Positions 614 through 20,582 of a stretch of DNA of 64,000 nucleotides are shown here, piece after piece. The first letter of the stretch is position 1, and the number at the start of each line of letters is the position of its first letter. Made by a program: the position numbers and the translations under genes. The DNA comes from an uncultured Verrucomicrobiae bacterium (GTDB taxonomy: Bacteria > Verrucomicrobiota > Verrucomicrobiia > Chthoniobacterales > Terrimicrobiaceae), in assembly GCA_963706955.1 (NCBI GenBank), contig CAVPOC010000005.1, positions 120,477 through 184,476 on the forward strand, read 5' to 3'. Below the pieces are notes generated by a model. The model saw nothing but the letters and a program-made list of their open reading frames with translations. It made no database searches and was not told the origin of the DNA.

Positions 614-2656
614 GTGATCCCAGGAGCCCACTCACCTGGGGCGAGAATTTTTCTTGCCTCCTTTCTTGTACTTTTCCTTGAGATCGCGCTGATTCGCTGG
701 ATGCCAGCTTACATCCGGTTGCTCGCTTACTTTTCGAATTTTATCCTCCTGGCCAGCTTTCTCGGAATCGGGGTCGGCTGCCTGCTGGCGTCGTCACGAA
801 AACAGCTCTTCACACTGTTTCCACTAATCCAAGCGCTCGTCATCGCGATGGTTTACTTTTTCCGGCTCGAAGTAGCTGTCGCCCCGACCGGGAGCCTCTA
901 CTTCTCGAGCGGAACTGCCGAGCAGGTCGTGGCCGTGGAAAGCACATTGCTGCTGCCGGTGATATTTGTGGTCGTGGCGGCCCTGTTTACCACTCTCGCC
1001 CAGCGCATGGGAAAGGAGATGGGCACACTTCCGCCGCTCCGCGGATACACGCTAAATCTGCTCGGCAGCCTTACAGGTGTTGGACTCTTTGCGCTCATTT
1101 CCTGGTTGCAACTCTCGCCAACCTGGTGGTTCGCCATTGGCTTCGCCGCGGCAATTCCACTCCTGCTGACCTCCGAGCCGGGCACGGGCCACTCTGCGCC
1201 TAAGGGCGTCGCACTCACGACGAACATCATTCTCCTGCTCGCCGCGCTGTTTTGTGTTCATCTCCTCGCACGAGGCGCACGCTGGTCACCATACTACAAA
1301 ATTACCTTTGGACGAGCAGATGGGGACGCGGTGATAGAGGTGAACAACATTTTTCACCAATCAATGGCCCCGGTAGGCCAGAAAGAATACTTCTACCAAT
1401 GGCCCTACATGGCCTTTGGGGACACGTTTCAAAACGTTCTCGTCCTCGGCGCAGGCTCGGGAACGGATGTTGCCGCGGCCTTGAAACATGGCGCCATTCA
1501 TGTTGATGCCGTCGAGATTGATCCCGTAATTGTCCAGCTCGGGCGTGAATATCATCCTGATAGGCCCTATTCCGATCCTCGCGTTAACGTCATCATCGAC
1601 GACGCACGACATTTTCTCAGGACAACAACGAAGAAGTATGATCTGGTAGTTTTTGCCTTGATCGATTCGCTGACGCTGCAATCAAGCTTCTCCGGCGTCC
1701 GGCTGGAGAGTTATATGTTTACGGAGGAAGCCTTCCAAGCTGTCAAGAATCGCCTCGCCGCAGACGGGTTGCTGGTCGTCTACAACTACTTCCGCGAACC
1801 ATGGCTCGTCGATCGGCTGGCAAACATCTCGGCTGCGGCCTTTGGGCAGGAACCACGTGTGCACGTCCATGAAGCGCGTGCCTATCTTGGGGTCTTAATG
1901 GCTGGGCCGAGACTATCCAAGTTGACAAAGGATCCATCGATCCCGGTGCGCGTTACTGCGTATGGGCAGTCGCACGCACCAAGTCCGGCACGTATCCATA
2001 GACGCGATGCGACCATTGAACCGGCAAGTGACGATTGGCCGTTTCTTTACCTTCGTGACCGCCACATCCCCCAGCACTATCTTTCCGCATTGGGTCTCAT
2101 CCTGGCAGTATCTACGGTTGCCGTTTTCCTCGTTCTTCGGGGACATCCCGGGAGATGGGCATGGGACTTCTTCCTTCTCGGAGCTGGATTCATGCTCCTC
2201 GAGACCCGATCGATCACTCAGTTTGCGCTGTTGTGGGGATCAACGTGGGTAGTGGCATCGCTCGCCATTGCCTCTGTCCTGGCGATGGCGCTCGTGGCCA
2301 ACTTCATTGTCTCCAAAGTTGAGATCGTCAGATTATGGTTGGTCGGAGGTATTCTTTTCACCCTCCTGGCGGTGAACTTCTTGATTCCTGTCGGCTCAAT
2401 CAGCTTTGAGTCCCGTATCGTCGAATCGCTTTTCTACGCCGGCCTAATGTTTAGCCCGATCTTGTGTGCGGGACTGTTGTTTGGTTCTTCCGTTAAGCGA
2501 TCGACGGCGCTCGCTCGGGACTATGGCACCAATCTTCTCGGCGCGATGTTCGGCGGAGTCAGTGAATACCTCGCCTTAGTCACCGGCTTCGGCACACTAC
2601 TGTTCGCCATCGCACTTTGCTACGTCGGCGCCATTGTTGCCATGAAACGACACTAA
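614..2656 (+). CDS. Membrane protein with central spermidine-synthase-like (class I SAM/dcSAM-binding) domain
   Basis: 680 aa ORF. Hydrophobic N- and C-terminal helices flank VLVLGAGSGTD, VDAVEIDP, IDDARHFL and YDLVVF motifs. Confidence 0.85.
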   Translation: MIPGAHSPGARIFLASFLVLFLEIALIRWMPAYIRLLAYFSNFILLASFLGIGVGCLLASSRKQLFTLFPLIQALVIAMVYFFRLEVAVAPTGSLYFSSGTAEQVVAVESTLLLPVIFVVVAALFTTLAQRMGKEMGTLPPLRGYTLNLLGSLTGVGLFALISWLQLSPTWWFAIGFAAAIPLLLTSEPGTGHSAPKGVALTTNIILLLAALFCVHLLARGARWSPYYKITFGRADGDAVIEVNNIFHQSMAPVGQKEYFYQWPYMAFGDTFQNVLVLGAGSGTDVAAALKHGAIHVDAVEIDPVIVQLGREYHPDRPYSDPRVNVIIDDARHFLRTTTKKYDLVVFALIDSLTLQSSFSGVRLESYMFTEEAFQAVKNRLAADGLLVVYNYFREPWLVDRLANISAAAFGQEPRVHVHEARAYLGVLMAGPRLSKLTKDPSIPVRVTAYGQSHAPSPARIHRRDATIEPASDDWPFLYLRDRHIPQHYLSALGLILAVSTVAVFLVLRGHPGRWAWDFFLLGAGFMLLETRSITQFALLWGSTWVVASLAIASVLAMALVANFIVSKVEIVRLWLVGGILFTLLAVNFLIPVGSISFESRIVESLFYAGLMFSPILCAGLLFGSSVKRSTALARDYGTNLLGAMFGGVSEYLALVTGFGTLLFAIALCYVGAIVAMKRH

Positions 2657-2734
2657 GAGCTCGGCTGCCAGTTTCGACAAGGGGAGAGAATCCAGGCGAG
2701 CTCGTTCGCCGGATCGAATCTCCGCTGGACTAGT

Positions 2735-2863
2735 TTATCTCCAAGTGTAATCCCGAAAGAGTCGTCTGGCCGTTGCCCCTTTTGGGTCCTTGCTTGGCTT
2801 CAGGTCCTTGACTTGAATTGTGCTCTTTTCTTTCTTCGGCTGTTTGTTTGATTTGGCTTTCAT
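2735..2863 (-). CDS. Precursor peptide B6, 42 aa: MKAKSNKQPKKEKSTIQVKDLKPSKDPKGA-TARRLFRDYTWR
   Basis: Hand-translated and absent from the ORF track. Leader is homologous to the five upstream copies. Removing one T from the run at 2780-2783 would instead give KGQ plus a longer core. Confidence 0.75.
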   Translation of the reverse strand: MKAKSNKQPKKEKSTIQVKDLKPSKDPKGATARRLFRDYTWR

Positions 2864-3026
2864 TCTGGCGGTTTGATGGTGGCTTGAGGCCGTTAATAAA
2901 ATCCTGCTAACGAGAGGGACCGTGTGCTGAACTCCCGGTCGGAATAATTCGCCGATGTTCAGCTTAGCTCATCAGGTCCCGCAGGAACGGCTTAATGGGC
3001 CGACTTATCGAACTTAGGCAATAACG

Positions 3027-3185
3027 TTATGCGAAACCACCGCCGGCTCCAAGTCGGCGAAGAGGTCTACCAGGCATCTCCCGACCCCGTATTCCTTGCC
3101 CCTTCGAGTCCTTAGTTGGCTCCAGGTCCTTGAGTTGAACAGTGGGGTTAACCTTCTTGGGTTGTTTCGATGACATTTCTTTCAT
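3027..3185 (-). CDS. Precursor peptide B5, 52 aa: MKEMSSKQPKKVNPTVQLKDLEPTKDSKGQ-GIRGREMPGRPLRRLGAGGGFA
   Basis: Hand-translated: ATG 3185, TAA 3027-3029, conserved 30-aa leader. Confidence 0.85.
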   Translation of the reverse strand: MKEMSSKQPKKVNPTVQLKDLEPTKDSKGQGIRGREMPGRPLRRLGAGGGFA

Positions 3186-3229
3186 GTCGCTGGTGCGTTT
3201 GCGGCTTCTAAGACATCACTGCGCATGCC

Positions 3230-3382
3230 CTAGAATGCCAAAGGGCGAAGGGGTCCGGGACGACGCATGGGTAACTCCCGACCAGGTCGGAGTTGCCCCT
3301 TTGAATCCTTGGTAGGTTGAAGGTCTTTGAGTTCGACACCGGGTTTGTCTTTTTTGGACTGTTTCGTTGGTTTCTCTTTCAT
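3230..3382 (-). CDS. Precursor peptide B4, 50 aa: MKEKPTKQSKKDKPGVELKDLQPTKDSKGQ-LRPGRELPMRRPGPLRPLAF
   Basis: Hand-translated: ATG 3382, TAG 3230-3232, conserved leader. Confidence 0.85.
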   Translation of the reverse strand: MKEKPTKQSKKDKPGVELKDLQPTKDSKGQLRPGRELPMRRPGPLRPLAF

Positions 3383-3490
3383 GCTTGTGGTTCGTTCTGT
3401 TGTTGTTCTTGCGACTTAGCGCCAAAACACCGTTTGGCGCCTGCTTTCGCTTGTTCTTACAAAAGTTTGCTGAGTCGGACTTGATTCCTG
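3379..3490 (-). pseudogene. Decayed copy of small ORF A (NQVRLSKLL*...CFGAKSQEQQQNEPQA*)
   Basis: Similar to 4600-4707. Has an internal stop, and its terminal TGA overlaps the ATG of B4. Confidence 0.55.
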
Positions 3491-3624
3491 GGTGATGTCT
3501 TCGCCTGGAAGAGTGCACTAACAACCGCGACGTCCCGGTCGAGGATCCCCTTGCGAGCTCGGCGTCCGTCAGCAAATCGCGAGCGAGACAGAGGCGGCAA
3601 CGTTCAATAAGCGGGATCTCGACC

Positions 3625-3774
3625 TTACAACCGCGAAAGACCTCCGGGAATTCGAAGAATATCACGAGAAGCCATCAGTCGCTTTTGCCCTTGGGCATCT
3701 TTGATCGGCTTGAGGTCCTTAATTTGGACGCCGGGTTTTTCTTTTTTGGACTGGTTCGTCGATTTTTCTTTCAT
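3625..3774 (-). CDS. Precursor peptide B3, 49 aa: MKEKSTNQSKKEKPGVQIKDLKPIKDAQGQ-KRLMASRDILRIPGGLSRL
   Basis: Hand-translated: ATG 3774, TAA 3625-3627. Confidence 0.88.
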   Translation of the reverse strand: MKEKSTNQSKKEKPGVQIKDLKPIKDAQGQKRLMASRDILRIPGGLSRL

Positions 3775-4026
3775 GGTTGTGGTTTGTTCTACTGTTGTTC
3801 TCGCGATTTCAAACGACGCGAAGTTGTGTTGCCGAGCTTAGTGTCCCCCTTGGGTGTAGAATCGTGGAATCGATTTGACTTGCCGATGACCCTTCTCGTC
3901 CCGGCGGCCGATCCTCGGTTCGCCGAGGCGTGTTAACTAATAACGGCTACCGTTTAAAAAAATGGCCCCCAGACTCGCCCACTTCGTAGCGACATTGAAC
4001 GACTGACCGCTGAGTCGCGATCGACC

Positions 4027-4200
4027 TCAACGGCGCGGAAAGCGTTCTCCAGGAAGTTGAATTATATCTGGAGAAAGCATTCTCATATCTTGAGAAGGCA
4101 TCAGTCGCTTCTGTCCTTGGGCATCTTTGGTCGGCTTGAGGTCCTTGATTTGAACAGCGGGTTTGTCTTTCTTGGACTGCTTGGATGATTTCTCTTTCAT
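4027..4200 (-). CDS. Precursor peptide B2, 57 aa: MKEKSSKQSKKDKPAVQIKDLKPTKDAQGQ-KRLMPSQDMRMLSPDIIQLPGERFPRR
   Basis: Hand-translated: ATG 4200, TGA 4027-4029. Confidence 0.88.
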   Translation of the reverse strand: MKEKSSKQSKKDKPAVQIKDLKPTKDAQGQKRLMPSQDMRMLSPDIIQLPGERFPRR

Positions 4201-4313
4201 GCGTTTGGTTGGTTCTTTTTTGACTTCTGCGGCTTGGCTTCCAAAGTCGGTCCGGCGTGCGGCTTCACCTCGCTCTCGGGAGGAGATTCGTTGAGCCGAA
4301 TGTGTTTGGCCAA
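4197..4313 (-). CDS. Diverged copy of small ORF A (TTG start; LAKHIRLNESPPESEVKPHAGPTLEAKPQKSKKNQPNA), possibly a pseudogene
   Basis: IRL...AKPQ..KK..P pattern aligns with 4600-4707. ATGA overlap with B2. Confidence 0.5.
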   Translation of the reverse strand: MAKHIRLNESPPESEVKPHAGPTLEAKPQKSKKNQPNA

Positions 4314-4456
4314 TGAGCTTTTCTCTTCACGAAAGGCGTATAGGCACTAAGCTGTGGTCGTTAACGTAGCTGCGACTATGGATACGCGTTTGCAACTCGT
4401 CCACGCCGCCTCAACAGCAACGAATAGCCTTTAGGCGCGGTTCGACCTTTAACCCC

Positions 4457-4597
4457 TCAGAAGCCTCCAGGTCTCCGAAAAATCTCTTCAGAGGCCATCA
4501 TTCGCCTCTGCCCCTGAGCATCCTTGGTTGGCTTGAGGTCTTTGATTTGGACAGCTGGTTTATCTTTCTTGGACTGCTTGGATGATTTCTCTTTCAT
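4457..4597 (-). CDS. Precursor peptide B1, 46 aa: MKEKSSKQSKKDKPAVQIKDLKPTKDAQGQ-RRMMASEEIFRRPGGF
   Basis: Hand-translated: ATG 4597, TGA 4457-4459. The 30-aa leader is identical to B2 in protein but differs at several synonymous codons. Confidence 0.9.
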   Translation of the reverse strand: MKEKSSKQSKKDKPAVQIKDLKPTKDAQGQRRMMASEEIFRRPGGF

Positions 4598-4599
4598 GC

Positions 4600-4707
4600 T
4601 TACGGTTCACTCTTTTTTGGGTTTTGCGGCTTGGCACCAAACACCATTCGGCGGCCCGCTTTGGCGTCCTTCTTGGGTATGAGATCGTCGAGCCGAATCT
4701 GATTCAT
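4600..4707 (-). CDS. Small ORF A, 35 aa: MNQIRLDDLIPKKDAKAG-RRMVFGAKPQNPKKSEP
   Basis: C-terminal part of the 4600..4794 ORF. Carries the DLxPxKD motif of the B leaders and is the first ORF after the sigma54-type promoter. Confidence 0.7.
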   Translation of the reverse strand: MNQIRLDDLIPKKDAKAGRRMVFGAKPQNPKKSEP

Positions 4708-4790
4708 CGGCGACGTTTTCTCGGCGCGGGCAGGGGTCGAGCGATGCTTGGGCGGTTGATCACTCACGTTTAAGCCTCGGACGTCTAAGA

Positions 4791-4805
4791 TCAAATTTCA
4801 TGCCA
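4791..4805 (-). promoter_or_regulatory. Putative sigma54 (-24/-12) promoter for the peptide array
   Basis: Minus strand reads TGGCATGAAATTTGA versus consensus TGGCACG-N4-TTGC. It lies between the activator gene and the first peptide ORF. Confidence 0.65.
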
Positions 4806-4938
4806 CCTCGCGCGCGGACCCAGCAAAATAGGGAAAAGGCTAATTCCAAGGCGCTTAATCGAAGCACGCCTGCAAAGGACAAACGATTCTACTGGTAACG
4901 AATCAGCGCAGCCCTGCTTCGAAATAGCTCCGGTCGCT

Positions 4939-5923
4939 TTAGTTTGGAGCCAGGCCGCGCAGATGCCGCGCAAGTTTCCCTCTCGAAATCCGGAGGATCC
5001 GGGCAGTTTCGCGTTGGTTGCAATCCGACATCTCGTAGACGCGACGGACGTGCTCACGGATAATGGCGTCAAGAGCAAACTGGTTTGCAGCTTCCTCGTG
5101 CGCGGCAGTTCCCTTGGCACCATTTAGTGGTCGCTCCACTGCGAGATCGCGCTCAAACGAGACGTGCTTAGGGTGAACCACGTTGCCATCACAAAAGAGC
5201 GCAACGCTACGCATGGTATGGTAGAGTTCGCGTAGGTTTCCCGGCCAGGCATGATTCAGCAGCATCTCCATGGCCGCAGGATGAATGGATGTGATGCGAT
5301 TTCCCGATCTCAGCCGCTGCGGCCTCAAGTTCCATGGCGATCAAAGAGGGCAAATCTTCCTGGCGCTCGCACAGCGAAGGGATGAACAGCACGAGGCCAT
5401 CAAGGCGATGATAGAGATCCTCGCGAAATTTTCCCGCGGCAATACGCTCCCGCAGCGAGCAATTCGTTGCGGAGATGATGCGGACATTCGAACGGTGCAG
5501 GCGCTCACCTCCGACGCGCTCGAACTCGCCATACTCCACCGCGCGCAGGATCTTCGCTTGGGCAAGTGGGCTCATGTCCGCAATTTCATCGAGGAAAAGC
5601 GTGCCGGTGTGAGCCGTCTCAAACTTTCCTCGATGCACCTGCATTGCTCCGGTGAACGCGCCGCGTTCGTGGCCGAAAAGCTCGCTTTCGAGCAGCGTGT
5701 CACTCATTGAGGATGCGTTGAAGGAAACAAATGGTCCGTGCGCTCGCGCCGAAGAATTGTGAATAGCATGCGCCAGCAGGGTCTTGCCCGTTCCGGTCCG
5801 GCCGAGAATGAGCACCGGAGCGTCGCTTTTGGCAGCAAAGGATGCCAGTTGGAGACACCGTCGCATGACGGGATTACGCGAAGTGAGTTCCTCCAAACGC
5901 AGATCGGTAATGGTCCGCATCAT
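4939..5923 (-). CDS. Sigma54-dependent activator (AAA+ plus Fis HTH) without N-terminal sensory domain; +1 frameshift near 5300
   Basis: GRTGTGKT, ESELFGHERGAFTGA, LFLDEI and FREDLYHRL in 5207..5974. WPGNLREL and the HTH NQRETARILRISR are in the overlapping 4939..5328 frame. Confidence 0.88.
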
Positions 5924-5927
5924 GAGG

Positions 5928-7115
5928 TCACGGTTGAAGATTCTCCCGCAGCTGGCGGATCGGCTCAAAGGCATGCTCGATCAAAGTGCGACTGCCGACG
6001 GTGACACGCGCCTCACCCTGCATGCCAACTCGCAAAGGGCGCTCTTCGCTTTTCACGCGAATGAAGGGCCGATCGAGCGACGCCGCGGCGGTGAACTGTC
6101 GGCTGCGCTCGGAGGCAACAGCCGCGGCGCTGATCCATTTTAGCTCGCCTGTCACCGTGCCGTAACGCTGATACGGAAATGCATCGAAGAACAATCTGAC
6201 ATGCTGCCCGATGGTCAGCCGCGCGAGGCCAGATTCACGAACGACCAAGCGGGCGTATGGGATGGCATCGATCGGGGCAAGTTGGCAAAGTTCCGCCCCC
6301 GCTGGCACGACGCTGCCCGCGTTTCGCTGGGCAAGCGAGATGACCACCGCATCATAGGGTGCGCGGATCGACAGGAGGTCGTTGCGCGTGCCAAGGAGAT
6401 CGCGTTGCAGAGCATCGATCTGCAACTTGAGTTTCTGCACATCCGCGATCTCCTCAGTTCGACGACGCGCCCGCTCGGTATCGAGCTTGCTGCGTTCGAG
6501 TTTCAGTGCCTCCAAGGATCTTCCGGCCACATGGAAATCTTTCTCGGATTCAGCGAGGTCCAACTGCACGCGTGTCAATTCGAGGTGCGAGACGCCGCCC
6601 ATCCGCGCGAGTCTGTCGAGCCGCTCCACCAAGTCGCGACTCGTTGCGGTATGTGTCCCGCGAAACTCCAGCTCGCGTTCGAACTGAGCGATCTCCTCGC
6701 TTTTGATTCTTCGCTGGGCGATATGGGCCGCCTCCATTTTGACGATCGTGTCCTCTTGGGTTCGGAGGTCCTGTGTCAACGTCTGAAGCTGCGTATGTTT
6801 CGCGCGAACCTCATCGGAGCGGAGGACGAAGAGTTCCGCGCCGGCGGCGACCTCTTGCGCCTCGACAACGCGAACGTCGCTGACGACACCGTGATAGGGC
6901 GCTTGGATCGGATCGGCACCATGTCTTGGCGCGAGCACAAATTGACAGCGCACCGTCTCCGGAACCTGAACGACAAGGGCCGCGATGAGCGCAACAACGA
7001 AGATTAGTGCCAATAGCCACGCCGTGCCCGAGACGATCAAAGGCGGTGGCTCGACCGGAAGCATTTCAGCCTGCTCATCTGACTCGCGTTTGCTCTGCGG
7101 GAGGGTCGAATTCAT
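5928..7115 (-). CDS. HlyD-family membrane fusion/adaptor protein
   Basis: N-terminal TM helix, coiled-coil middle, IRAPYDAVV, DAFPYQRYGTVTG and LRVGMQGEARV motifs. Confidence 0.92.
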   Translation of the reverse strand: MNSTLPQSKRESDEQAEMLPVEPPPLIVSGTAWLLALIFVVALIAALVVQVPETVRCQFVLAPRHGADPIQAPYHGVVSDVRVVEAQEVAAGAELFVLRSDEVRAKHTQLQTLTQDLRTQEDTIVKMEAAHIAQRRIKSEEIAQFERELEFRGTHTATSRDLVERLDRLARMGGVSHLELTRVQLDLAESEKDFHVAGRSLEALKLERSKLDTERARRRTEEIADVQKLKLQIDALQRDLLGTRNDLLSIRAPYDAVVISLAQRNAGSVVPAGAELCQLAPIDAIPYARLVVRESGLARLTIGQHVRLFFDAFPYQRYGTVTGELKWISAAAVASERSRQFTAAASLDRPFIRVKSEERPLRVGMQGEARVTVGSRTLIEHAFEPIRQLRENLQP

Positions 7116-7124
7116 GAGCAAAAT

Positions 7125-10100
7125 TCAGATACCCAACTGTTGGCTGGAGAGATGGAAATAGAGACCGCGCCTTGCCATGAGCCCATCGTGTGTGCCGGTC
7201 TCGACAATTTCGCCTTTCTCCAAGACGACGATCATATCGGCCTCGCGAATGGTGCTCAGGCGATGGGCGATGACAATGCAGGTCCGCCCAACCATCATGC
7301 GACTGAGATTGTCCTGGATCGCGCGTTCGGATTCGGTATCAAGCGCGCTGGTCGCCTCGTCGAAAATGAGAATTGGTGGGTCTGTATAGAGTGCGCGCGC
7401 GATGGCGACGCGTTGTTTCTGTCCGCCGGATAGGGCGATGCCAGTCTCACCGATGCTCGTCTCGTAGCCCATGGGCATCCGCATGATGAAGTCGTGAGCA
7501 TTGGCGACCTGGGCACACCAAAGGACGCGGTCGAAGTCCGGCTCGGGGTCGCCGAAGGCGATGTTGCGGGAGATGCTTTCACTAAAAATATGATTATCCT
7601 GGAGAACGATTCCGATTTGCCGGCGCACATCACGAAAGTTGAGCTCCTTGAGGTCCCGCCGGTCGAAGAGGATCGTCCCTGTGGTGGGCTCGATTAAACT
7701 AGCGAGCAGCTTTACGAGCGTAGTCTTCCCGCTGCCACTCCGGCCGACGATCGCGACGATCTTGCCGGGAACAAACTCGATGCTAATGCCTTTTAAGATG
7801 TCAGGCGCCTCGGGGCCGCCATATTTAAAGCCAACGCCGCGCAATTCGATATGTCCTTCCAAAGAATGCACAGGGATGAGGCGCGCGCGATCGCTCCCCT
7901 GCTCCGGCTCCGGCTCGAAGATGTCGTTAAGACGATCGAGAAGCACAGCGATCCATTGCCACTGATCCCAGATGCCAAGTGTCCGTAAAATGGCCGCATA
8001 CGCCATCGCGGTCAGCGAACTGAAGGCCACAAATGCGCCCACTGTAAGTTGTCCCTCCATGACCTTACTGGCGCCCACCCACAGGAAAAGCGCCGTTGAG
8101 AGCAATCCAATTGTTTGAATCACTCCGTCATAGGACATGAGAATGAAGTTCGAACGAAACATCTTTCGCAAGACGCTTAGATATTCGTTGAGCATCGAAT
8201 TGCGAAAGCTGAGCTCGGCGGCGGACGCCTTGACGGCTTCAATTCCTTTGATGGCGTCAATTTGTTGCGAGGCGTACTTTCCCTGACTCTCCTCAATGTC
8301 AAAGAAGAGCGGGCGCAGCACTTTGGCCGACCAGATCATCAGGAGCGTGTAAAGAGGCATCGTGATCATGAAGACGCCGGCTAGAGCCGGGCTGTAGACC
8401 AGCATCATGCCAAGCGCGCCAGCAAGCGTGATGATGGAGAAAAGACCGCCAATGCCATGCTCGACTGCGAAAAGTCTTATTTCCCGTGCGCCATTGAGGC
8501 GACGTTGGATGTCGCCGGTCCGTCGACTGTGAAAATATGACATCGGCAGGGAAAGCAGCTGACGAGTGAGAAAGTCGAGTAGAGTCGCGTCTATCCGGAC
8601 CGCCGCGAAGCTGAGGAAATATTGCTGGAGAAGGTTGGCAAGCTGGGTGAAGACGATGGCTGCTCCCATCCCGATCAAAACCACATGGAGGAGATCGGCG
8701 TTGTTTTCGACGACCACCCGATCCAAGACAATCTGCGTGAAGACTGGGAAGAGAAGCTGCAAAAAGGTGACGATGCCCGCGAGGATTAGCGCCTGCAGGA
8801 GGATCATTCGGTGCTGCCGGAACAGGGGTGCGAAACGTCTTACGGTTGATTGTGCTTCCGGAGCCTGTGCGAATGCCTCGGTATAGTCGAACAGGGCGGT
8901 GTAACCCGACCACTTGGCGGCGAATTCCGAGCGAGAGATGCGCCGAAGACCCGCCGCAGGATCAGCCACTCTCACATACGAAGGCGTCACATCGTAGAGG
9001 ACCATCCAGTGGTTCCCTTCCCAATGGACGATCGCCGGCATCGGAAGGTTCGGAAGATTCCGTGGGGAAACCTTGAGCATGCGGGCGGCAAGCCCCAGTT
9101 CGCCGGCTGCATGGCAGATTGCCTTCAGGCTGGTGCCGTCCCGTGACGTGTGGCAAAGCTCGCGGATACGCGAAAGACTTACCTTGCGACCGAAGTGCCG
9201 GCAAATCATTGCCAGGCTGGCTGCACCACAGTCCATCTCGTCGATCTGCTGCACATGCGGTATGCGGCGGATGCGTCTCTTGTCGCGGGGACGGAACAGG
9301 CCTTCCCTGTCGTCTGAGGGCTCCGGCTGCTCCTCATCCAACGCAACCTTGTCCTGCACCCGCGTCTCAGCCGGAAGCAGCTCTTCCGCAAAATCAAGCG
9401 GAACACGCGCAACGACATCGGCTTGATACTGCGCAAGACGTTCCTCAAGTAATTTGCGAAACTCGGGAAACTGTTCTTTCATCTCGCGCACACTTTCGGG
9501 CTGCAGCGCGAGCAGGCGGCAATCCGCGACTGCTTCGACCGAGGCGGCACGTTGTGACCCATTCAAAATGGAGAGCTCACCGAAAAAGTCGCCGTCTCTG
9601 TAAAAAGCCACATTCTTCTGACGGCCGTTCGATTGCGTGAAAATTCGAACTCGCCCCGACTCGATGACGAAGAGAGGTCCGGCAGGATCGCCCTCACGAA
9701 GGATGGTCGCGCCGCGCGCATAAGCGACCGGCGTCATCTTCTCGACCAGTGTCCTGAGAGCGCGTTCTGGAAGTCGCCCGAAGTTGCTAAACTCATGCAG
9801 AAAGCCATGCAAAGTGCGATGCCGCGAGGTCAGCTCGACCGCGGTCTTCAAGTCGGGATGCTCAGTCAACAATGAGAGAAAGTCGGCCCGGTTGAGCCGG
9901 AGAGCGTCCACCGCAGTACTGCACCGGACAGTGGCATTTCGGCAACCGCCCGCGATGAGGGCCTGTTCGCCAAACTGGTCGCCCGGGCGAAGAACGGCCA
10001 AGGCAACCTCTTGACCCTCCTTGATCTCCTTGACGACGCGAGCCCGGCCGTTGACGAGGATGTAACAGGCATCCGCTTCGTCTCCTTCTCTGACGATCAC

Positions 10101-10217
10101 GTCGCCGAATTCGAAATGCTCCTCCTGGAGCACGGCACGCAGGCAGTCAGCCCGATCTTCCGGCAGAAAGCGGAAAAAAGACGAGCGATCCAAGACTTCG
10201 TTTTGGTGTTGCGTCAT
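7125..10217 (-). CDS. Peptidase C39-containing ABC transporter (PCAT) with two N-terminal cyclic-nucleotide-binding domains
   Basis: cNMP motifs FGEQAL..RNATV and FFGELSIL..RAASV. C39 motifs QIDEMDCG, NHWMVL and VADP. ABC motifs GRSGSGKT, LSGGQKQR and DEATSALD. ATG 10217 overlaps the upstream stop (ATGA). Confidence 0.95.
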   Translation of the reverse strand: MTQHQNEVLDRSSFFRFLPEDRADCLRAVLQEEHFEFGDVIVREGDEADACYILVNGRARVVKEIKEGQEVALAVLRPGDQFGEQALIAGGCRNATVRCSTAVDALRLNRADFLSLLTEHPDLKTAVELTSRHRTLHGFLHEFSNFGRLPERALRTLVEKMTPVAYARGATILREGDPAGPLFVIESGRVRIFTQSNGRQKNVAFYRDGDFFGELSILNGSQRAASVEAVADCRLLALQPESVREMKEQFPEFRKLLEERLAQYQADVVARVPLDFAEELLPAETRVQDKVALDEEQPEPSDDREGLFRPRDKRRIRRIPHVQQIDEMDCGAASLAMICRHFGRKVSLSRIRELCHTSRDGTSLKAICHAAGELGLAARMLKVSPRNLPNLPMPAIVHWEGNHWMVLYDVTPSYVRVADPAAGLRRISRSEFAAKWSGYTALFDYTEAFAQAPEAQSTVRRFAPLFRQHRMILLQALILAGIVTFLQLLFPVFTQIVLDRVVVENNADLLHVVLIGMGAAIVFTQLANLLQQYFLSFAAVRIDATLLDFLTRQLLSLPMSYFHSRRTGDIQRRLNGAREIRLFAVEHGIGGLFSIITLAGALGMMLVYSPALAGVFMITMPLYTLLMIWSAKVLRPLFFDIEESQGKYASQQIDAIKGIEAVKASAAELSFRNSMLNEYLSVLRKMFRSNFILMSYDGVIQTIGLLSTALFLWVGASKVMEGQLTVGAFVAFSSLTAMAYAAILRTLGIWDQWQWIAVLLDRLNDIFEPEPEQGSDRARLIPVHSLEGHIELRGVGFKYGGPEAPDILKGISIEFVPGKIVAIVGRSGSGKTTLVKLLASLIEPTTGTILFDRRDLKELNFRDVRRQIGIVLQDNHIFSESISRNIAFGDPEPDFDRVLWCAQVANAHDFIMRMPMGYETSIGETGIALSGGQKQRVAIARALYTDPPILIFDEATSALDTESERAIQDNLSRMMVGRTCIVIAHRLSTIREADMIVVLEKGEIVETGTHDGLMARRGLYFHLSSQQLGI

Positions 10218-11287
10218 GGGGCGCCAATCGGCGGCAAAATCCATCGCACGAAACGCCCGGCCAGTTCGGAAAAATAGCGCTCCACGATCTTCGCTTCCAC
10301 ACGATGCCGCACTTCATCATCGGTCAGATCGAAGTCTGTCTTCCCCAGCAATCGGCAAAGCTCGAAGTGCCCTTCGTGTTCGATCGGATCGAGGATTTCT
10401 CCGGGCCTGGCGCTGAGAAGCCTCGGCTGTAGATCTTCCGGCAGGTCCTCGTAGAAGACACGGCTGCGCCGATAAGGATAGCCTGCACCAGAGGCGACCT
10501 CTTCCATCGGCTCGCCGTCTGCGCTCACGCATTCGAAGACCTCACATGCCGCATCGCGCGAGTCGACTTCAATGAGCTCCAGATCGAATCTCATCAAAGG
10601 CATTCTCAAGGTGTGCAGCACCCGCTCGCGCGAGCCAACACTAAGGATCTCCTCGCGCTGGCCTCGGAAGAGGGCTTCCAGTTCCAACATTTCGTTGAAC
10701 CAAACAACCTCCCGCCCAAGCCCGAGCAGCCACCTGTCGAGCCCGTCGCCGCCCAGTCCACTGCGTTCCAAGAATCGCGCGCGTTCGCTTTCGATCGCCT
10801 TTGCGGTCGGCGCATGGCCCACCCCCTCGCGTGCCGCGATGCGCCACGCTAACGCAGTTGCGAGGCGATCAAAGTCCCCGGTAAACAGCAGGTCGATCTG
10901 CAGTAAATGACGCAGATCCGCCGGCGCGAACGCATACTCTTCCACTTGCCGGTCTGGGCTGGCGGGAGCCGAAGCAGATACCTGCTCTCGGATGAGGAAA
11001 TCGCTGAAGTCGTCGAGACTCAGGCCACGTTCGTCCAGCCATCGCTCGGTTTCCTCAGCACTGATCAGATCACGGTTGATGCGGAACTCCTCTGAGCGGG
11101 CCTGCAGGTCCGCTTCGTCCGTTTCACGACCGCTCGCCCCGCTTTTCACATAGTCGCACACGCGCTTCCAACTCTTTTCGAGGTCACCCCGGAAATGAGC
11201 CGCGCAAATGACGTCGTCCATGGTAATCGTCTTGTTTCCAACATGAAATACCCCAAGATCTCGAACGCCCAACTCTGTGCTAATCAT
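10214..11287 (-). CDS. PpiC/SurA-related accessory protein of the export operon
   Basis: LQARSEEFRINRDLISAEETERWLDERGLSLDDF N-region and parvulin-like C-region (EDLPEDLQPRLLSARPGEILDPIEHEGHFEL). Translationally coupled to the PCAT. Confidence 0.7.
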   Translation of the reverse strand: MISTELGVRDLGVFHVGNKTITMDDVICAAHFRGDLEKSWKRVCDYVKSGASGRETDEADLQARSEEFRINRDLISAEETERWLDERGLSLDDFSDFLIREQVSASAPASPDRQVEEYAFAPADLRHLLQIDLLFTGDFDRLATALAWRIAAREGVGHAPTAKAIESERARFLERSGLGGDGLDRWLLGLGREVVWFNEMLELEALFRGQREEILSVGSRERVLHTLRMPLMRFDLELIEVDSRDAACEVFECVSADGEPMEEVASGAGYPYRRSRVFYEDLPEDLQPRLLSARPGEILDPIEHEGHFELCRLLGKTDFDLTDDEVRHRVEAKIVERYFSELAGRFVRWILPPIGAP

Positions 11288-11577
11288 TGGGATCCAGGGA
11301 TGAAGATCGAGACGTCTGTCCTACGCATCGACGTGTTTTTGCAGATCGCACACGTTTTGACGCCAGGCTTAAAATGCCCCGCAGAGCGCCGCAAGCGACC
11401 ATAGCTAAGTATCTCATAGCATTCAAATGGCCTGCTCTGCAAGTATCTAACGGGCTCAAAGTCCTAGTGATTGGTCAAAATGTGATGTTGAAAGGGTCCC
11501 GACGAGCTCGTAACCAACTCTCAACTTTCAGCTGCGTTGCATGGCGGGGACAGCCTTCCGGACGTAGTCTAGCCCTC

Positions 11578-12399
11578 ATGCAAGCACACGACGACGACCT
11601 GAAGATATTCGAAGCGGAGGGCGCTGCGCCTTTGCCTCCGGCGACCGCTCAGGACTACATGGAGCACGACGGCGCTCGAATCTGGTACGCGAGCTACGGG
11701 CTCGGGCTCCCTGTAATCCTGCTGCATGGCGGTCTCGGGCACAGTGGTAACTGGGGTTACCAGGTCCCGGCGGTGATCGCCTCGGGCTATCGCGCCGTGC
11801 TTATCGACAGCCGAGGCCATGGCCGCAGCACGCGCGATTCACGGCCCTATACCTACGAGTTGCTGGCCTCCGACGTGATCGCGGTCATGGATGTATTGCA
11901 TCTTGAGAGAGCGGCCGTTGTCGGCTGGAGCGATGGCGCTTGCACCGCTTTGATTCTCGCGACAAAGGTTCCGGCCCGCCTTGCCGGGATATTCTTCTTT
12001 GCTTGCAATATGGATCCGAGCGGGCTCAAGGAGATCGCCCAGCCCAATCCGCTCCTCGACCGTTGTTTCCGGCGGCACGCCAAAGACTATGCCGCGCTAT
12101 CCGCCACCCCGGACGAATTCAAAGCATTTACCGAGGCGGTCGGTCGGATGCAGAAGACGCAGCCCGATTACTCTGCGCGGCAGCTGGCTGCTATCACCGT
12201 GCCAGTCGCCATCGTCCTGGGCGAGCACGACGAATTTATCAAACTCGAACATGCCGAATATCTCGCGCGAAATATTCCCGGGGCGGAACTGCTCATCCTT
12301 CCCGACGTCAGCCATTTCGCACCTCTGCAAAGACCCGAACACTTCAATCGCGAGATGCTCGCTTTCATTGCTAAGGCTTGGGGGACCGCTGACGGTTGA
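11578..12399 (+). CDS. Alpha/beta fold hydrolase
   Basis: LLHGGLG, DSRGHGRS, GWSDG nucleophile elbow, HDEFI and SHFA. Confidence 0.9.
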   Translation: MQAHDDDLKIFEAEGAAPLPPATAQDYMEHDGARIWYASYGLGLPVILLHGGLGHSGNWGYQVPAVIASGYRAVLIDSRGHGRSTRDSRPYTYELLASDVIAVMDVLHLERAAVVGWSDGACTALILATKVPARLAGIFFFACNMDPSGLKEIAQPNPLLDRCFRRHAKDYAALSATPDEFKAFTEAVGRMQKTQPDYSARQLAAITVPVAIVLGEHDEFIKLEHAEYLARNIPGAELLILPDVSHFAPLQRPEHFNREMLAFIAKAWGTADG

Positions 12400-12464
12400 A
12401 GGTCAGAGCATCTCGGCGACGAAGTTACGCCGTATTGCCCGATGAATAAGCCTTCCGCCTCTTA

Positions 12465-13496
12465 TCAGAGTTCCGAATTGGCGACGATGAAGTCGAACAC
12501 CTCGCGCGTGATTCTTCTGCCGAAATTCGGCCGCGAGTCGTCGCCGAGCGCACCCGCAGCTCCGCGTAGCACGCCCACGACATACGGCCAATCATCGGTG
12601 TCATAGACATAGAGTCCGGATCCACTGTCGCCGAACCAAGCATCCATAAAGAAGTTGATATAGTCGCCGTTGCGGATGCCATTGCCCTCGTTTCCCCAAA
12701 TCTGTGGTTGTCGTTTGTCGCTCGGATGACCGTAGACGAACATCGTGTTGCCAGTAATTACGGAGTCCGGGGCTTCCCAGAGCCCCTTCCAGCCGCTGGC
12801 TCGGCCCGGAAAATCGCCACAGCCCGCAAATTCCACGACCGCGTAGTCGAAGCGCGCGTCGCCGCCGCTTTGATTGATGAATGCCGTTGGAATCGAGACG
12901 GTATAACAGCCAAACTGACCAAACGGAAACCTGGTCGCGTCTTGGAAGTCGGAGCCTGGAGCAAACCACGGTAGCTCCAGCCAGTTGGTCCCATTGTGGA
13001 CAACGTGCGCGGCAGTGAGAGCGGTCGATGCACCAATCATCGTGCCAGAGCCCGAGTATCCGCCGCCGTCGCGTGGCAGATAGGTGACAGTACTCCAAGG
13101 ATAGGATGTATTGTCCCTTCGGACGACGCGATTGTCGGCGCCAATGATCCCTGACCGGGGGCGCAGCATCCTGGCCTCCAGTCGCTCTCCCTCCGATCTG
13201 CCTAATGGCGAAAAGGACTGAGTTCGGCGATACGGGTCGGCCTTGCGAAGGCGGGCGACGGCCCCTGAGGATGCTTCGCCTACATACTCGTAGCCTCCTC
13301 TCAAGACGACTGGACGGAGAGCCTCGGCAAGTTGCTCATCGCTCATATCCAGAGCAGGTGCCAACTCCTCTCCGCTCGGTGGGATGATGCGTGGATAAAC
13401 AGAACTCCGAACGAACTGCGCCTTACCGCGGAGGGTTAATGTTTGTCCTTTCGGGCCCTCGAAGGTTTTGGGCGCGTAATCGATAGACTTTGCCAT
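12465..13496 (-). CDS. Trypsin-like (V8/glutamyl endopeptidase-type) serine protease; start uncertain
   Basis: LTAAHVV, FDYAVV and GDSGSG catalytic triad motifs. Confidence 0.85.
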   Translation of the reverse strand: MAKSIDYAPKTFEGPKGQTLTLRGKAQFVRSSVYPRIIPPSGEELAPALDMSDEQLAEALRPVVLRGGYEYVGEASSGAVARLRKADPYRRTQSFSPLGRSEGERLEARMLRPRSGIIGADNRVVRRDNTSYPWSTVTYLPRDGGGYSGSGTMIGASTALTAAHVVHNGTNWLELPWFAPGSDFQDATRFPFGQFGCYTVSIPTAFINQSGGDARFDYAVVEFAGCGDFPGRASGWKGLWEAPDSVITGNTMFVYGHPSDKRQPQIWGNEGNGIRNGDYINFFMDAWFGDSGSGLYVYDTDDWPYVVGVLRGAAGALGDDSRPNFGRRITREVFDFIVANSEL

Positions 13497-14107
13497 ATAA
13501 TTCCTATTTTGGATGTCTTGCGCCTTTCGCGTGGCGCCTAACAATGAATTGATTGCTTATTAATGCGAAACGCGGCGAAACATAAATTGGCCAGCCAGAA
13601 CTTTTGTCCTTTTCTGAAACAAATGGTCCCCTAAGGCCTTCATGCTTCCCTGTCTAATTACAACGACATTCAAAGACGCGAGTTTCAAAGTCCGGAGAAT
13701 TGCTACGAAGGTCGAAGCGCCACGAACGGTTGCAACGGCAAACACGGTAGCAGCGGTGTTCTCACCGCCGATACGCCGCGACGGCGTTGAGGACATCGCC
13801 GTTACAAAGAACGCCGACTGCTCATCAACAATCAACCATCAACTAGCTCCAGAGCACCATCGGCGCGGCTTTGGGGAGCATACCCGTCTCGGGCCGTCTC
13901 AGGTGTGGTGCCGGGCGTCCCGCCCGGCACAGGAGCGTTTCGCGCGTCTCTGGTCAATCATCTCCCCTTGGCCGCCGTAGCTTCAGCGAAGGAGACTGGA
14001 CGCCGAAGCCCTCCAGACGAAGGAGGCTCAATTGACTCACAGAACTCGCGAAAGAGAGCACTGTCTTTTGGCAAAGTAAACCGCGTCCCATCTTTGCTTC
14101 ACGCAAG

Positions 14108-14524
14108 TTAAAAATCAGGACGGTTGGGAGAAAGAATTCGGATCTTCGGAAAATAGTCGCGCAGGTACCCTCGGTCGTCCGTTGCCAGCAAATCAGCTTG
14201 GGTGGCAGCATGTGCACCAACAAGGAAATCCGGCAGAATCGTTGTCCGTGGCCCGCCCTCCTTCCGGTAATTCCGGAAGATGCGTCCAGCCAGGTTGGCC
14301 GCCTCTTCGCTCAGCGCGCTGTGTCGTAGATCAAGGTCACTAAGGGCGGTCCGGCAGGCGCCGTCTGATGGGAAGAACGACCGGATCTCCGCAAGCACCA
14401 CCGAGGAAACCAGCAGAGAGGCAGCTTCCGCGGCGGTTTGCAGACATTCGAGCCAGCGCTCTCCTGTCGGTTCACCCTTGAAGATCGCCAGCAGGACGGA
14501 AGTATCAACCGCGATGACGCTCAC
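14108..14524 (-). CDS. vapC: PIN-domain toxin (VapC family)
   Basis: AVDTSVL, LAEI, LPDFLVGAHA and LATDD motifs; overlaps the antitoxin stop. Confidence 0.9.
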   Translation of the reverse strand: MSVIAVDTSVLLAIFKGEPTGERWLECLQTAAEAASLLVSSVVLAEIRSFFPSDGACRTALSDLDLRHSALSEEAANLAGRIFRNYRKEGGPRTTILPDFLVGAHAATQADLLATDDRGYLRDYFPKIRILSPNRPDF

Positions 14525-14787
14525 CGGCGGTTTCTTTTCCGCCGGCCTTTGGGCAACTCGACCGGGCCGCGCAGTTCCTCCAGAAGATCAGTCACGCTGC
14601 GACCTTCAAGCTCCGTCTTAAGGCAACCGAGCACCCTCCTTTGCTTCCGACGATCAACCACCTTGCGCAGCCTGATTCCATCCTCTCTGGCGGCAAAGTC
14701 AATCTGTGCCCCAGGTTCAATACCGAACCGGTCTCGCAACTCCTTGGGAATGGTAACCTGACCTTTCGAGGTGACCTGCGCTTTCAT
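14521..14787 (-). CDS. AbrB/MazE/SpoVT-family antitoxin
   Basis: VTSKGQVTIPKELRDRFGIEPG motif directly upstream of the PIN gene. Confidence 0.9.
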   Translation of the reverse strand: MKAQVTSKGQVTIPKELRDRFGIEPGAQIDFAAREDGIRLRKVVDRRKQRRVLGCLKTELEGRSVTDLLEELRGPVELPKGRRKRNRR

Positions 14788-14793
14788 AACAAG

Positions 14794-14822
14794 AATGTAA
14801 GAATCGTCGGTTAGAATGACAA
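14794..14822 (-). promoter_or_regulatory. Sigma70-type promoter of the TA operon (probably a leaderless mRNA)
   Basis: TTGTCA-17 bp-TACATT, ending 6 nt before the ATG at 14787. Confidence 0.55.
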
Positions 14823-14992
14823 GTAATACCTTGATCGGCCGAAAGACGTTTCGATCGGCACCTGACCGCGCATCAGGTCAACCGTGGTAGCCCACCGAAG
14901 AAGTCACTTGAAATAACATCCAGGCCCGTCCTGCGCGCTCGCAAGATGAACCACAAATACTGGCCGCCGATCCGCTGAATGTCATATGTCAA

Positions 14993-16721
14993 CGGGCTGT
15001 TGCCCAAACAGGACGAGTTCTGGCGTGAAAAATGCTTAGGGATGGAGTGAGCTATGAGTGGGTCAATGGCAGAAGCCGACCGAGCTGTGGGTCGGAACCG
15101 AAAAAGATTAGGCAGACGAATTTGGCCTTAGATCAGTTTGCTAAGAAAGAGCAATGGAGTACTCGATGCTTGTGGTTCGTTTGCCGCGAAGTGATCCTCA
15201 GGCTTTTACGGGAGCAATGGCCACGATGTAGGTCGATCCTGAATGCTTTATCACCAGAGTCTGACGCTCCAGCGGGCTCGCTTAAAGATGTGCTGCAGCG
15301 AGCGCGCGCTCGATGCGAATTGTGCCGCTGCGCTTGAAATCATCTGCCGGCGCTTACGGTCAGAGCGGGCTTGCGAGGAATGGGATTGCTGGCTCACAGT
15401 GTATCCTGAGCCTAGCGCGCATAGCGCTTGAGGGATGCGACCAAGTTCTTATGACGCGTGCAGAACTGTCGCAGCCTGCAGCGTCGCGCAGTGTGTCCCC
15501 GCTGCGGGCCGATATTCGATAGCAGCCACGCTTGGCATCAAAGTGGTGCCTGTAAAGTCGCGGCGAATCTCTCCCGCAACTCGGGCATCGAGGTAGTAGT
15601 CCGGCTGCGAGGCTGAGTAGAGCTAAAGTGTTCTGGAGCGAGATAGATTACCATGGCTGCGCGCATTGCAGCAGTTTGCTGCGGTCAGATCGAAAGCTGC
15701 ACATGCGCCACCGACCATGACTCGACGGTGTGTCCGAAAGCAATCAGGGTAGGCCGTACTCCCTGCCGTAGCGGCTCGTCGGCTACCTGCCGACCTTGGT
15801 CTTGGCAGCGGTGACGCCGCTCATGTCTTTCGACGGGAGCTGTCGATGAAGCTCAGCTGAGCTTCATCGACAGCTCCCGTCGTTAGTCGTGATCGCCGTC
15901 ACCACTGCCAAGCCTAGGTCGTCAGGTAGCCCGATGAGTCGTTATAGGAGGGAGTACGGCCTGCCCTGACTGGTGCCGGACCACCGTCGAGTCAGGGTCG
16001 GTGGTGCATGCGCAGCTTTCGATCTGACGCGAGCCCCCGCTGCAATGCGCGGAGTCCAAGGTCTTCTATCTTGCTCCTGCTCACTCAAGCTCTACTCACC
16101 TGCGCCGAAGCCGACCACCTCGATGACTGGTTGCGGACGCATTCGGCGACGAGAGAGGCATCACAGATACCAGCTTTGTTGCCATCGACCAGGCTCCGCA
16201 TGCAACACACTGCTCGACGCTCCGGGTAAAGAGCCGCTCAAAGACTTGCAGGATCCCCAACAGTTTGCGCGCTTTGCTCAATACACTGTGAATGGGGATC
16301 TCATCCTCAAGCGCGTACGCGGGCCTAGGAACCACTAGATAAAGCCAAGCGCAGCGGCACAATCCCCGCATAGCTCGCTCTGACCGCATGCGCTGCGCAC
16401 ATGGTTTCGAAAGAGCAGGAACATCAGCTTGATGCCGCCATGCATCACGGGGTCGACCGAGCCCGCTGGCGCGGATTGCTCCCGTACAAAGCATTCAGGA
16501 TCACCTCATCGCGGCGCATCAAAACCCGAGGATCATCGCCAAAAACCACGATTGCATCTATTCTTAGCGCTTAATCGGATACTGGCTAAGGCCAAATTCG
16601 TCTGCCTAAGCTTTATCGGCTTCCGACCCACAGCTCGGTCTGCTTCTGCTCAATGGCCCATCAGAGCTAACTCCATGCCTAAGATTTTGCCACAAGCTCA
16701 TCCTTTTTGAGCAACAGCCCG
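14993..16721. repeat. 1.73 kb imperfect palindrome / foldback element with IS-like ends and TCAA flanking duplication
   Basis: Perfect 52-bp palindrome at 15831-15882. Arms match in reverse complement out to CGGGCTGTTGCCCAAA...TTTGAGCAACAGCCCG. TCAA at 14989-14992 and 16722-16725. Confidence 0.85.
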
Positions 16722-20540: not shown

Positions 20541-20582
20541 GGTGGTGAACGGGTTAGGCGGGTCTGAGGATAAACCCGCGAC

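Follow-up and report, generated by a model that had tools for sequence, protein, structure and literature searches.

In a 64,000-nt stretch of the genome of an uncultured soil Verrucomicrobium (assembly GCA_963706955.1, contig CAVPOC010000005.1, positions 120,477 to 184,476; hereafter the window), we found a locus in which a conserved set of chaperone, exporter and activator genes is followed by seven small peptide genes. The exporter is a peptidase-containing ATP-binding cassette transporter (PCAT) with an HlyD-family adaptor. We read the locus as a sigma-54-controlled, chaperone-assisted system in which the PCAT and HlyD proteins export a set of cationic peptides that stay unmodified, and we give this reading a probability of about 0.65. 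The peptides would be bound, cut, exported and regulated by the products of the adjacent genes, and would play their role outside the cell.

The array comprises seven precursors of two classes, a conserved A and a variable B (Table 1). A previous interpretation of this DNA, made from its letters without database searches (the sequence-only reading), had reported an array of six co-oriented open reading frames (ORFs) of 42–57 amino acids (aa). All six are there on the minus strand and are the B genes; the seventh, A-type, gene and the decayed A copies had escaped it. The common Lys-rich leader of 30 aa that it had described is borne out: residues 1–30 of B1–B6 align without gaps, and 12/30 columns are invariant. 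Likewise, the B1 and B2 leaders, claimed to be identical in protein and under selection as peptides, differ by nine synonymous and no non-synonymous changes. Over all 28 pairs of leaders (the six window copies and two from L007, the locus of the nearest relative), the ratio of non-synonymous to synonymous differences per site (pN/pS) was 0–0.46, with synonymous sites near saturation. These values indicate protein-coding genes under purifying selection rather than chance ORFs. In the 4.16-Mb genome, the leader profile matched only at the six B places. Pfam and NCBIfam models, including the NHLP and Nif11 leader models, assigned the peptides to no family (0 NCBIfam families for the seven peptide ORFs). 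Since Rfam gave 0 matches at gathering score on the whole window, no known RNA element accounts for the repeats of the array. The gene at 614–2656 (+), convergent with the array, codes for a membrane protein of 680 aa that has a spermidine-synthase-like domain; of the relatives, only the closest, L007, also has it beside the array (86% identity).

The export of double-glycine (GG) peptides by PCATs is textbook knowledge, and the canonical leader motif of such peptides is LSxxELxxIxGG. The leader at this locus is of another kind, as the sequence-only reading had recognised, and its general end in all precursors is (I/V)x(L/I/V)xDL(I/K)Pxx(D/N)xxGG. In the window, the GG is replaced by AG (A-type), GQ (B1–B5) or GA (B6); the same holds for L007, whose exporter is 85% identical and whose sites are AG for A and GQ, GA or AQ for B across the two loci. 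A true GG ends both leader classes in L008, L009, L012, L028 and L029 (...KLIRLDDLIPKGNVSGG followed by RQLLFGATD..., and ...VKVRDLKPSKDAKGG followed by the core), and the leaders of related Chthoniobacterales metagenome-assembled genomes (MAGs) end in ...DLxPxKDAKGG. A PCAT substrate carries GG, or Gly-Ala/Ser, and is cut there on export; the relatives have GG and the window has AG, GQ or GA, behind which we predict cleavage.

The A-type precursor (MSDQPPKHRSTPARAEKTSPMNQIRLDDLIPKKDAKAG followed by RRMVFGAKPQNPKKSEP) has a leader ending in ...IRLDDLIPKKDAKAG and the core RRMVFGAKPQNPKKSEP. A Shine-Dalgarno (SD)-like GAGG is located at 4774–4777, 7–10 nt before the GTG, and the stop codon lies 2 nt from the start of B1. 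Orthologues occupy the same place in L007, L008, L009, L012, L028 and L029. The decayed copy before B4 was matched also in the scan of the phylum sample (G000:C5:123861-123989, 1 TAA). Furthermore, the 5' regions of B2–B4 are homologous in DNA to the A-type region (alignment A2), and repeat family D1 occurs in four copies spaced by 392, 426 and 397 nt. The homologous 5' regions and the decayed A copies indicate that a unit of A plus B (about 400 nt) was duplicated in tandem and that the extra A copies then decayed.

Table 1. Features of the peptide-export locus, listed in the direction of transcription (positions are those of the window).
Feature	Position	Strand	Description
PrsA/SurA-like ("PpiC-related") protein	10214-11287	-	357 aa; first gene of operon
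PCAT	7125-10244	-	1039 aa; cNMP_binding x2, Peptidase_C39, ABC_membrane, ABC_tran (Pfam)
HlyD-family membrane fusion protein	5928-7121	-	397 aa; HlyD_3, HlyD_D23 (Pfam)
Sigma-54 enhancer-binding protein	4939-5974	-	AAA+ and lid domains, DNA-binding C-terminus; split between frames 5207-5974 and 4939-5328
Sigma-54-like -24/-12 motif TGGCATGAAATTTGAT	4790-4805	-	22 nt before A-type start codon
A-type precursor	4600-4767	-	55 aa; GTG start at 4767; directly before B1
B1 precursor	4457-4597	-	46 aa; site GQ; core RRMMASEEIFRRPGGF
A-type remnant, weak	4263-4331	-	before B2; profile E 0.21 only; DNA homologous to A-type region (alignment A2, repeat family D6)
B2 precursor	4027-4200	-	57 aa; site GQ; core KRLMPSQDMRMLSPDIIQLPGERFPRR
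B3 precursor	3625-3774	-	49 aa; site GQ; core KRLMASRDILRIPGGLSRL
Decayed A-type copy	3385-3507	-	internal stop; before B4; A-type profile E 1.6e-6
B4 precursor	3230-3382	-	50 aa; site GQ; Pro/Arg-rich core LRPGRELPMRRPGPLRPLAF
B5 precursor	3027-3185	-	52 aa; site GQ; core GIRGREMPGRPLRRLGAGGGFA
B6 precursor	2735-2863	-	42 aa; site GA; core TARRLFRDYTWR

The four genes upstream are on the same strand as the array and are as tightly coupled as had been claimed, their junctions being a 31-nt overlap, a 3-nt gap and a 47-nt overlap. The order given by the sequence-only reading (PCAT, HlyD, PpiC-like, activator) has to be corrected to PpiC-related, PCAT, HlyD, activator. The exporter has both the C39 peptidase (Peptidase_C39, E 1.6e-36) and the ABC parts that define a PCAT. 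The C39 motifs QIDExDCGAA, NHWxVL and ADP are invariant in 10/10 orthologues, and we take them to hold the catalytic triad, with C339, H412 and D428 as the candidates in the window protein. Solved PCAT1, ComA and HlyB align with it over residues of about 330–1035 (PCAT1, 4ry2, residues 329–1035, E 3e-117; ComA, 8hf7, E 1e-99). Ahead of the C39 part stand two cyclic-nucleotide (cNMP) domains. FGE...R(x)A(T/S) is the loop motif of cNMP domains, and both retain it in the translation. The adaptor matches TIGR01843 at 132 bits, below the cut-off. About 40 kb from the exporter, the window holds a gene for a PAS-PAS-adenylate/guanylate cyclase (51880–53526, +), which could be a source of ligand for the cNMP domains.

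The first gene of the operon encodes a protein without any Pfam match. With TIGR04500 (PpiC_rel_mature) it reaches 33.2 bits, where the cut-off is 180, and 12/12 orthologues match this model weakly (best E 8.3e-10), which marks the protein, on profile similarity, as a distant relative of TIGR04500/MirC. An AlphaFold model built from a 12-sequence alignment reached a mean predicted local distance difference test (pLDDT) of 88. The best PDB folds found by Foldseek were PrsA (5tvl, 4wo7, 7l75 and 6vj6), SurA (2pv3 and 9hg5) and Cj1289 (3rgc), with E-values of 6e-6 to 1e-4; the C-terminal alpha/beta part of the model matches isolated parvulin domains (target template-modelling score 0.5–0.64), and a language-model atlas gave the same fold lead. 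The protein should be cytoplasmic, because no signal peptide, membrane helix or N-terminal hydrophobic stretch was seen by eye in its translation. In all loci its gene adjoins that of the PCAT, so that a SurA-like protein encoded beside a PCAT, as in TIGR04500/MirC, is present here. The predicted complex with B1 lends weak support to a binding of this peptide: the score was 0.34 against 0.00 for the best control; the partner pLDDT was 46 or more, and the runs shared 57% or more of their contacts. The mark of the predictor is reached by 116/157 solved complexes and 2/215 mismatches, and most passes at or below 0.60 are wrong unless the two partners were already likely to pair.

The same arrangement recurs in relatives. 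A scan with one genome per species returned seven loci, all from Verrucomicrobiota or Chthoniobacterales MAGs, and six of them keep the order PpiC-related, PCAT, HlyD, activator; the contig of L011 stops within the activator gene, and that of the seventh locus, L013, within the PCAT gene. The four-gene block is also retained in L028 (G048) and L032 (G300). Behind the activator come an A gene and then one or two B genes, with the exception of L010, where the A-type ORF looks decayed (only its start is kept) and no B-type was found. The B-type copies number six in the window, two each in L007 and L008 and one each in L009, L012, L028 and L029. Thus, the link claimed between leader-bearing precursors and C39 PCAT/HlyD genes is seen again in related MAGs, as the block followed by homologous peptides. 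The flanks vary from locus to locus (RecBCD, CHAD, a potassium channel, an epimerase), which indicates that nothing else belongs to the block.

Then, we looked at a phylum sample of 401 Verrucomicrobiota genomes, in which the carriers are kin and amount in effect to two lineages, so that the counts do not form a statistical test. Strong matches of the PpiC-related protein (E ≤ 1e-120) occur in 5/401 genomes (G000, G048, G300, G247 and G337), with weak ones in two more. A-type matches were found in 7/401, namely the five genomes just listed, G070 and, weak and stop-containing, G058; B-type matches were found in three (G000, G048 and G300). G300 has two additional B-type leader matches outside the operon (G300:C2:77489-77790). 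Two of the carriers, G247 and G337, belong to family f41; in them the PpiC-related gene stands beside a full-length cNMP-PCAT gene, followed by a glycosyltransferase-4 gene, and the stretches fetched gave no HlyD or activator match.

Both peptide classes are large families in soil metagenomes. In a collection of 5.8 billion proteins (cluster representatives at E ≤ 1e-3), the A-type profile retrieved 1770 proteins (3007 candidates scored) and the B-type profile 2473 (5549 candidates scored). Among the 240 matches listed, none has a functional name: they are mostly unnamed or "hypothetical protein", P0168 and P0216 bear stray automatic names, and a precomputed Pfam domain is present in P0216 only. 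The site is GG in 120/120 of the top A-type matches; among the top 120 of the B type it is GG in 47, GQ in 42, GA in six, AG in three, other in four and unparsed in 18. Across 26 A-type members, conservation extends over the full length, including the part past GG (RQLLFGATD(I/T)xQT...).

The B cores fall into recurring families (RRLMASQDMRMLSxDxIRLPGGGLPRR; LRLGRELPMRRPGPLRPPAF; TARRQFRDYTWGR), which indicates that the cores themselves are under selection. The core family of B2 is seen again in metagenome proteins such as P0123 and P0141, that of B4 in P0121 and P0128, and the core of P0139 is near-identical to that of B3. In L007, the orthologues of B5 (L007:16687-16839, core GPRGREMP...) and B6 (L007:16913-17044, RTTRLFRDYTWGR; core common to P0162 and P0166) show that the cores GxRGREMP... 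and R(L)FRDYTW(G)R are shared by the two loci. All window cores are Arg-rich and none contains Cys. Many B cores of the GG group are hydrophilic, often His- or Arg-rich, tandem low-complexity sequences, e.g., (AGRTV)n, (QGHxA)n and (GATRQ)n; tandem-repeat cores occur in L029:393-566, P0212, P0219, P0223 and P0230. We also considered the leader as a general secretion signal for big proteins and rejected this idea: at E ≤ 1e-3 only 35 longer proteins (108–346 aa) carry the B leader, against 2473 short ones. Of seven of these 35 proteins, five resemble read-throughs of gene calling or chimeras, P0268 seems to be a genuine larger cargo and P0259 was left unclassified. In some metagenome proteins A and B, or two B-like units, are fused in one open frame as leader-core-leader-core (P0143, P0169, P0174 and P0239; P0160, P0165 and P0176). 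In P0247, a homologue of a trypsin-like peptidase of the window is joined directly to a B6-type precursor; the window gene (12465–13544, -) lies 1.2 kb upstream of the operon and has no match in 11 related loci searched.

Regarding regulation, the activator has the domains Sigma54_activat (E 1e-61) and AAA_lid_14 and, in translation, GAFTGA, as expected for interaction with sigma-54. Its AAA+ domain begins near residue 30, leaving no N-terminal sensory domain. In 8/8 Chthoniobacterales loci the pattern YGGCAY-N5-xTGxT is found 12–22 nt before the A-type GTG. In family f41, the A-like copies follow a sigma-54 promoter of canonical form (TGGCATGGCTTTTGCT, which in two copies lies 97 nt ahead of the start), and this supports sigma-54 control. 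Scans for sigma-70 promoters and terminators stayed at chance level, with no terminator-like site on the minus strand inside the array, and the latter fits a single transcript. Two soil RNA libraries, from separate studies (X19 and X20), yielded contigs that map with 0–6 differences to 3492–4616, i.e., to B1–B3 and their spacers (B1, 4450–4616; B2, 3977–4191; B3, 3646–3886 and 3654–3804 in the two libraries), and hint at expression of the array; they cover neither 2700–3491 nor most of the activator gene, which says nothing either way. Between the activator stop and the promoter-like motif lies a 24-nt inverted repeat (4850–4873 and 4908–4931, 75% complementary, 34 nt apart), which could be the terminator of the operon or a binding site of the activator.

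Putting these elements together, the activator would switch on the sigma-54-type promoter before the A gene, and the whole array would be made as one transcript. The PpiC-related chaperone would hold the precursors unfolded, the C39 domain would cut behind the GG-type site, and the ABC and HlyD proteins, together with an unlinked outer-membrane channel, would export cores of 12–27 aa, Arg-rich and Cys-free, with no further modification. The cNMP domains would gate this export on a nucleotide signal. As for function, we lean towards a housekeeping or signalling role for the A peptide and a use of the diversifying B peptides against or between neighbouring cells. The two classes could also be tied in a secretion-coupled switch, in which A holds the sensor-less activator off, directly or via the chaperone, until nucleotide-opened export of A frees the activator and B is then made and released; we regard this extension as improbable.

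Several observations weigh against the export reading. As to the site, C39 peptidases rarely have Gln at -1 or Ala at -2, and only columns 389 and 449 of the C39 domain consistently separate GQ from GG loci, in a comparison of two with eight loci that is confounded by relatedness. Conservation of the A core directly past GG is atypical for a pure export signal, and the block contains no immunity-like gene, receptor kinase or extra conserved small gene, where immunity genes have no general model. As to regulation, the -24 half of the promoter-like motif is canonical and kept in 8/8 loci, and the -12 half reads TGR/T-T, departing from TTGC(W) and lacking the consensus C. Only 12–22 nt separate the motif from the start codon, at several loci it shares bases with SD-like purines, and a sigma-54 start from it would leave a 5' untranslated region of about 1–11 nt. 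Because of the missing C and this closeness to the start codon, we call sigma-54 control of the array likely, and not more. A consensus scan of the whole window shows no enrichment (63 sigma-54 matches found, 65 expected), TGGCATGAAATTTGAT being the only one near the array. The RNA-library contigs are strandless and may be DNA carry-over.

The activator itself is frameshifted in this assembly, with one extra base near 5299 compared with L007, and the only rpoN match of the genome (G000:C5:65-1050, outside the window) is cut by a contig end, split in two frames and below the cut-off. In L007 and L009 one uninterrupted frame encodes the activator, and in a DNA contig of a related strain (run X5) one letter is absent at exactly 5299. 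Moreover, several window genes are fragments (e.g., Voltage_CLC at 59124–59639 and a hydrolase tail at 20169–20807). Thus, the X5 contig, the two-frame rpoN and these fragmented genes make an assembly indel plausible at the activator.

The predicted co-occurrence of leader and transporter holds in part. All five genomes with a strong PpiC-related match have A-type peptides; on the other hand, the A-like ORFs of f41 are unlinked to the exporter and stand directly before large pilin-like Big_9/cadherin genes, and in G070, which has an A-like ORF, the best exporter match covers residues 465–1035 only, without the C39 part, which speaks against a strict link. The f41 ORFs have GG leaders (L024:9969-12558, L025:7273-10162 and 11344-15400, L027:412-3234 and L026:8775-10063), and the proteins encoded downstream are Big_9/cadherin proteins of 784–1258 aa with a pilin-like N-terminus, or, in L026, 366 aa without a Pfam match.

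One alternative is a true pathway for peptides made on ribosomes and modified after translation (RiPPs), as the sequence-only reading had suggested among other options: the PpiC-related protein, like MirC, would have to work with a modifying enzyme whose gene lies elsewhere, and cross-links or other modifications would be put into the cores before export. Rosaritide production needs both MirC and the ATP-grasp ligase MirB, whose cluster also encodes the PCAT MirD (as reported in PMC13097080), and the uniform, if weak, TIGR04500 matches of the orthologues and the many cores with Ser/Thr/Lys and Asp/Glu are what such a pathway would have. However, the TIGR04500 score of the window protein is far from the cut-off, and no maturase or partner ATP-grasp is conserved beside the block in the relatives' loci examined. 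None of the 51 window ORFs (8 + 43; beyond 13.5 kb, those of 130 aa or more plus an 88-aa ORF at 14521–14787) matched a radical S-adenosylmethionine, YcaO, lanthipeptide or ATP-grasp family by Pfam, in agreement with the absence of such enzymes noted by the sequence-only reading. Furthermore, TIGR04187, the model of the MirB-type ATP-grasp, has 0 matches in the 92.5%-complete genome, other ATP-grasp and enzyme families elsewhere in it not having been searched. We therefore do not maintain the RiPP assignment and consider it unlikely. The 88-aa ORF encodes a MazE/AbrB-type antitoxin that overlaps the gene of a 138-aa PIN-domain protein by 4 nt, forming a VapBC-like pair (14108–14787, -).

The small proteins might instead be intracellular regulators removed by export, for example A restraining the activator, or upstream ORFs tuning the genes behind them. 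No same-strand gene comes after the array in Chthoniobacterales loci, the next gene of the window being convergent, and the B cores group into separate conserved families, so we hold this explanation to be rather improbable even though the activator, having no sensory domain, needs a trans-acting partner. Indeed, a sensor-less activator controlled by a partner in trans is the logic of PspF-type systems. The full-length conservation of A and the f41 A-like ORFs, placed between a sigma-54 promoter and large pilin-like genes, also speak for such a role. That the ORFs are decaying or untranslated repeats without present function is close to refuted. The decayed A copies inside the array and the frameshifted activator would suit decay; the nine synonymous against zero non-synonymous differences of the B1/B2 leaders, the pN/pS of at most 0.46 in all pairs, the thousands of homologues, the orthologous cores kept in L007 and the related strain's activator without the extra base do not.

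If the export reading holds, the locus matters in three respects. Candidate substrates adjoin a cNMP-bearing exporter, so that cleavage and ligand gating become directly testable, where the substrate of the cyanobacterial exporter HetC is given as unidentified in PMC10986499. The exporter is accompanied by a cytoplasmic PrsA/SurA-like protein but by no modifying enzyme, which would separate the proposed chaperone role of MirC from the ligase. Finally, the two large families point to a common, unannotated repertoire of peptides, predicted to be secreted, in the Chthoniobacterales, a major soil lineage. Were the secretion-coupled switch true, a cNMP-bearing PCAT would have identified substrates, which HetC lacks, and a PrsA/SurA-like chaperone would serve unmodified peptides in the cytoplasm.

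We found no description of such a system in the full-text literature, with most subscription journals outside the searched set; a microcin survey (PMC12219008) nowhere contains the terms "Verrucomicrob", "phyla", "cyclic nucleotide" or "sigma". The sequence-only reading, which recognised no described class, is upheld as far as neither a description nor a Pfam or NCBIfam model was found; it needs qualifying in that the locus encodes a distant relative of TIGR04500/MirC and that cNMP-bearing PCATs are known from HetC (PMC10986499).

Among known systems, HetC of Nostoc PCC 7120 is the closest studied protein to the window exporter, with a cNMP-type domain ahead of an active C39-ABC exporter. In PMC10986499, this single N-terminal domain is needed in vivo and binds guanosine tetraphosphate (ppGpp) in vitro, and no adaptor gene is reported nearby; here there are two cNMP domains, and the adaptor and candidate substrates are adjacent. 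The mir cluster likewise has the gene of a cytoplasmic protein with a SurA-like domain next to a PCAT and a precursor (PMC13097080), while at our locus no ATP-grasp ligase was found. According to the same source, the C-domain of MirC is unlike the peptidyl-prolyl isomerase domain of Cj1289, whereas the modelled window protein has a C-terminal domain that appears parvulin-like. Of the NCBIfam models, those of NHLP/Nif11 (TIGR03796 and TIGR03794) match the exporter best, with the adaptor matching too, but the scores remain under the curated cut-offs (545.7 vs. 853.3 bits for TIGR03796 on the exporter, which is thus not an NHLP equivalog; 43.1 vs. 156.2 for the other). Because the curated cut-offs were not reached, we file the locus under neither TIGR03796 nor TIGR04500. 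With PspF-type activators, the activator shares the two-part architecture of AAA+ and DNA-binding domains without a sensory domain, but its gene lies inside a peptide-export operon and its TIGR02974 score is 216.6 against a cut-off of 443.55.

The export of class II microcins and colicin V, which uses a C39 PCAT, an HlyD-family adaptor, an unlinked TolC-like channel and GG-leader peptides, resembles the locus in having genes for a C39-ABC exporter and an HlyD adaptor beside small, presumably unmodified precursors, with GG in most relatives. Here, however, the leader is about 30–38 aa long, rich in Lys and marked by a Pro at -8 and an Asp-Leu at -11/-10, in place of the short LSxxELxxIxGG; the exporter has two cNMP domains, and the operon includes the PrsA/SurA-like gene and the sigma-54 activator; there is no immunity gene in the block, the precursors are of two classes and the window copies have GQ, GA or AG at the site. 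The locus is probably an undescribed form of GG-peptide export, set apart by five features: the leader type, the double cNMP domain, a PrsA/SurA-like chaperone without a maturase, a sensor-less sigma-54 activator, and a conserved A peptide accompanied by diversifying B peptides.

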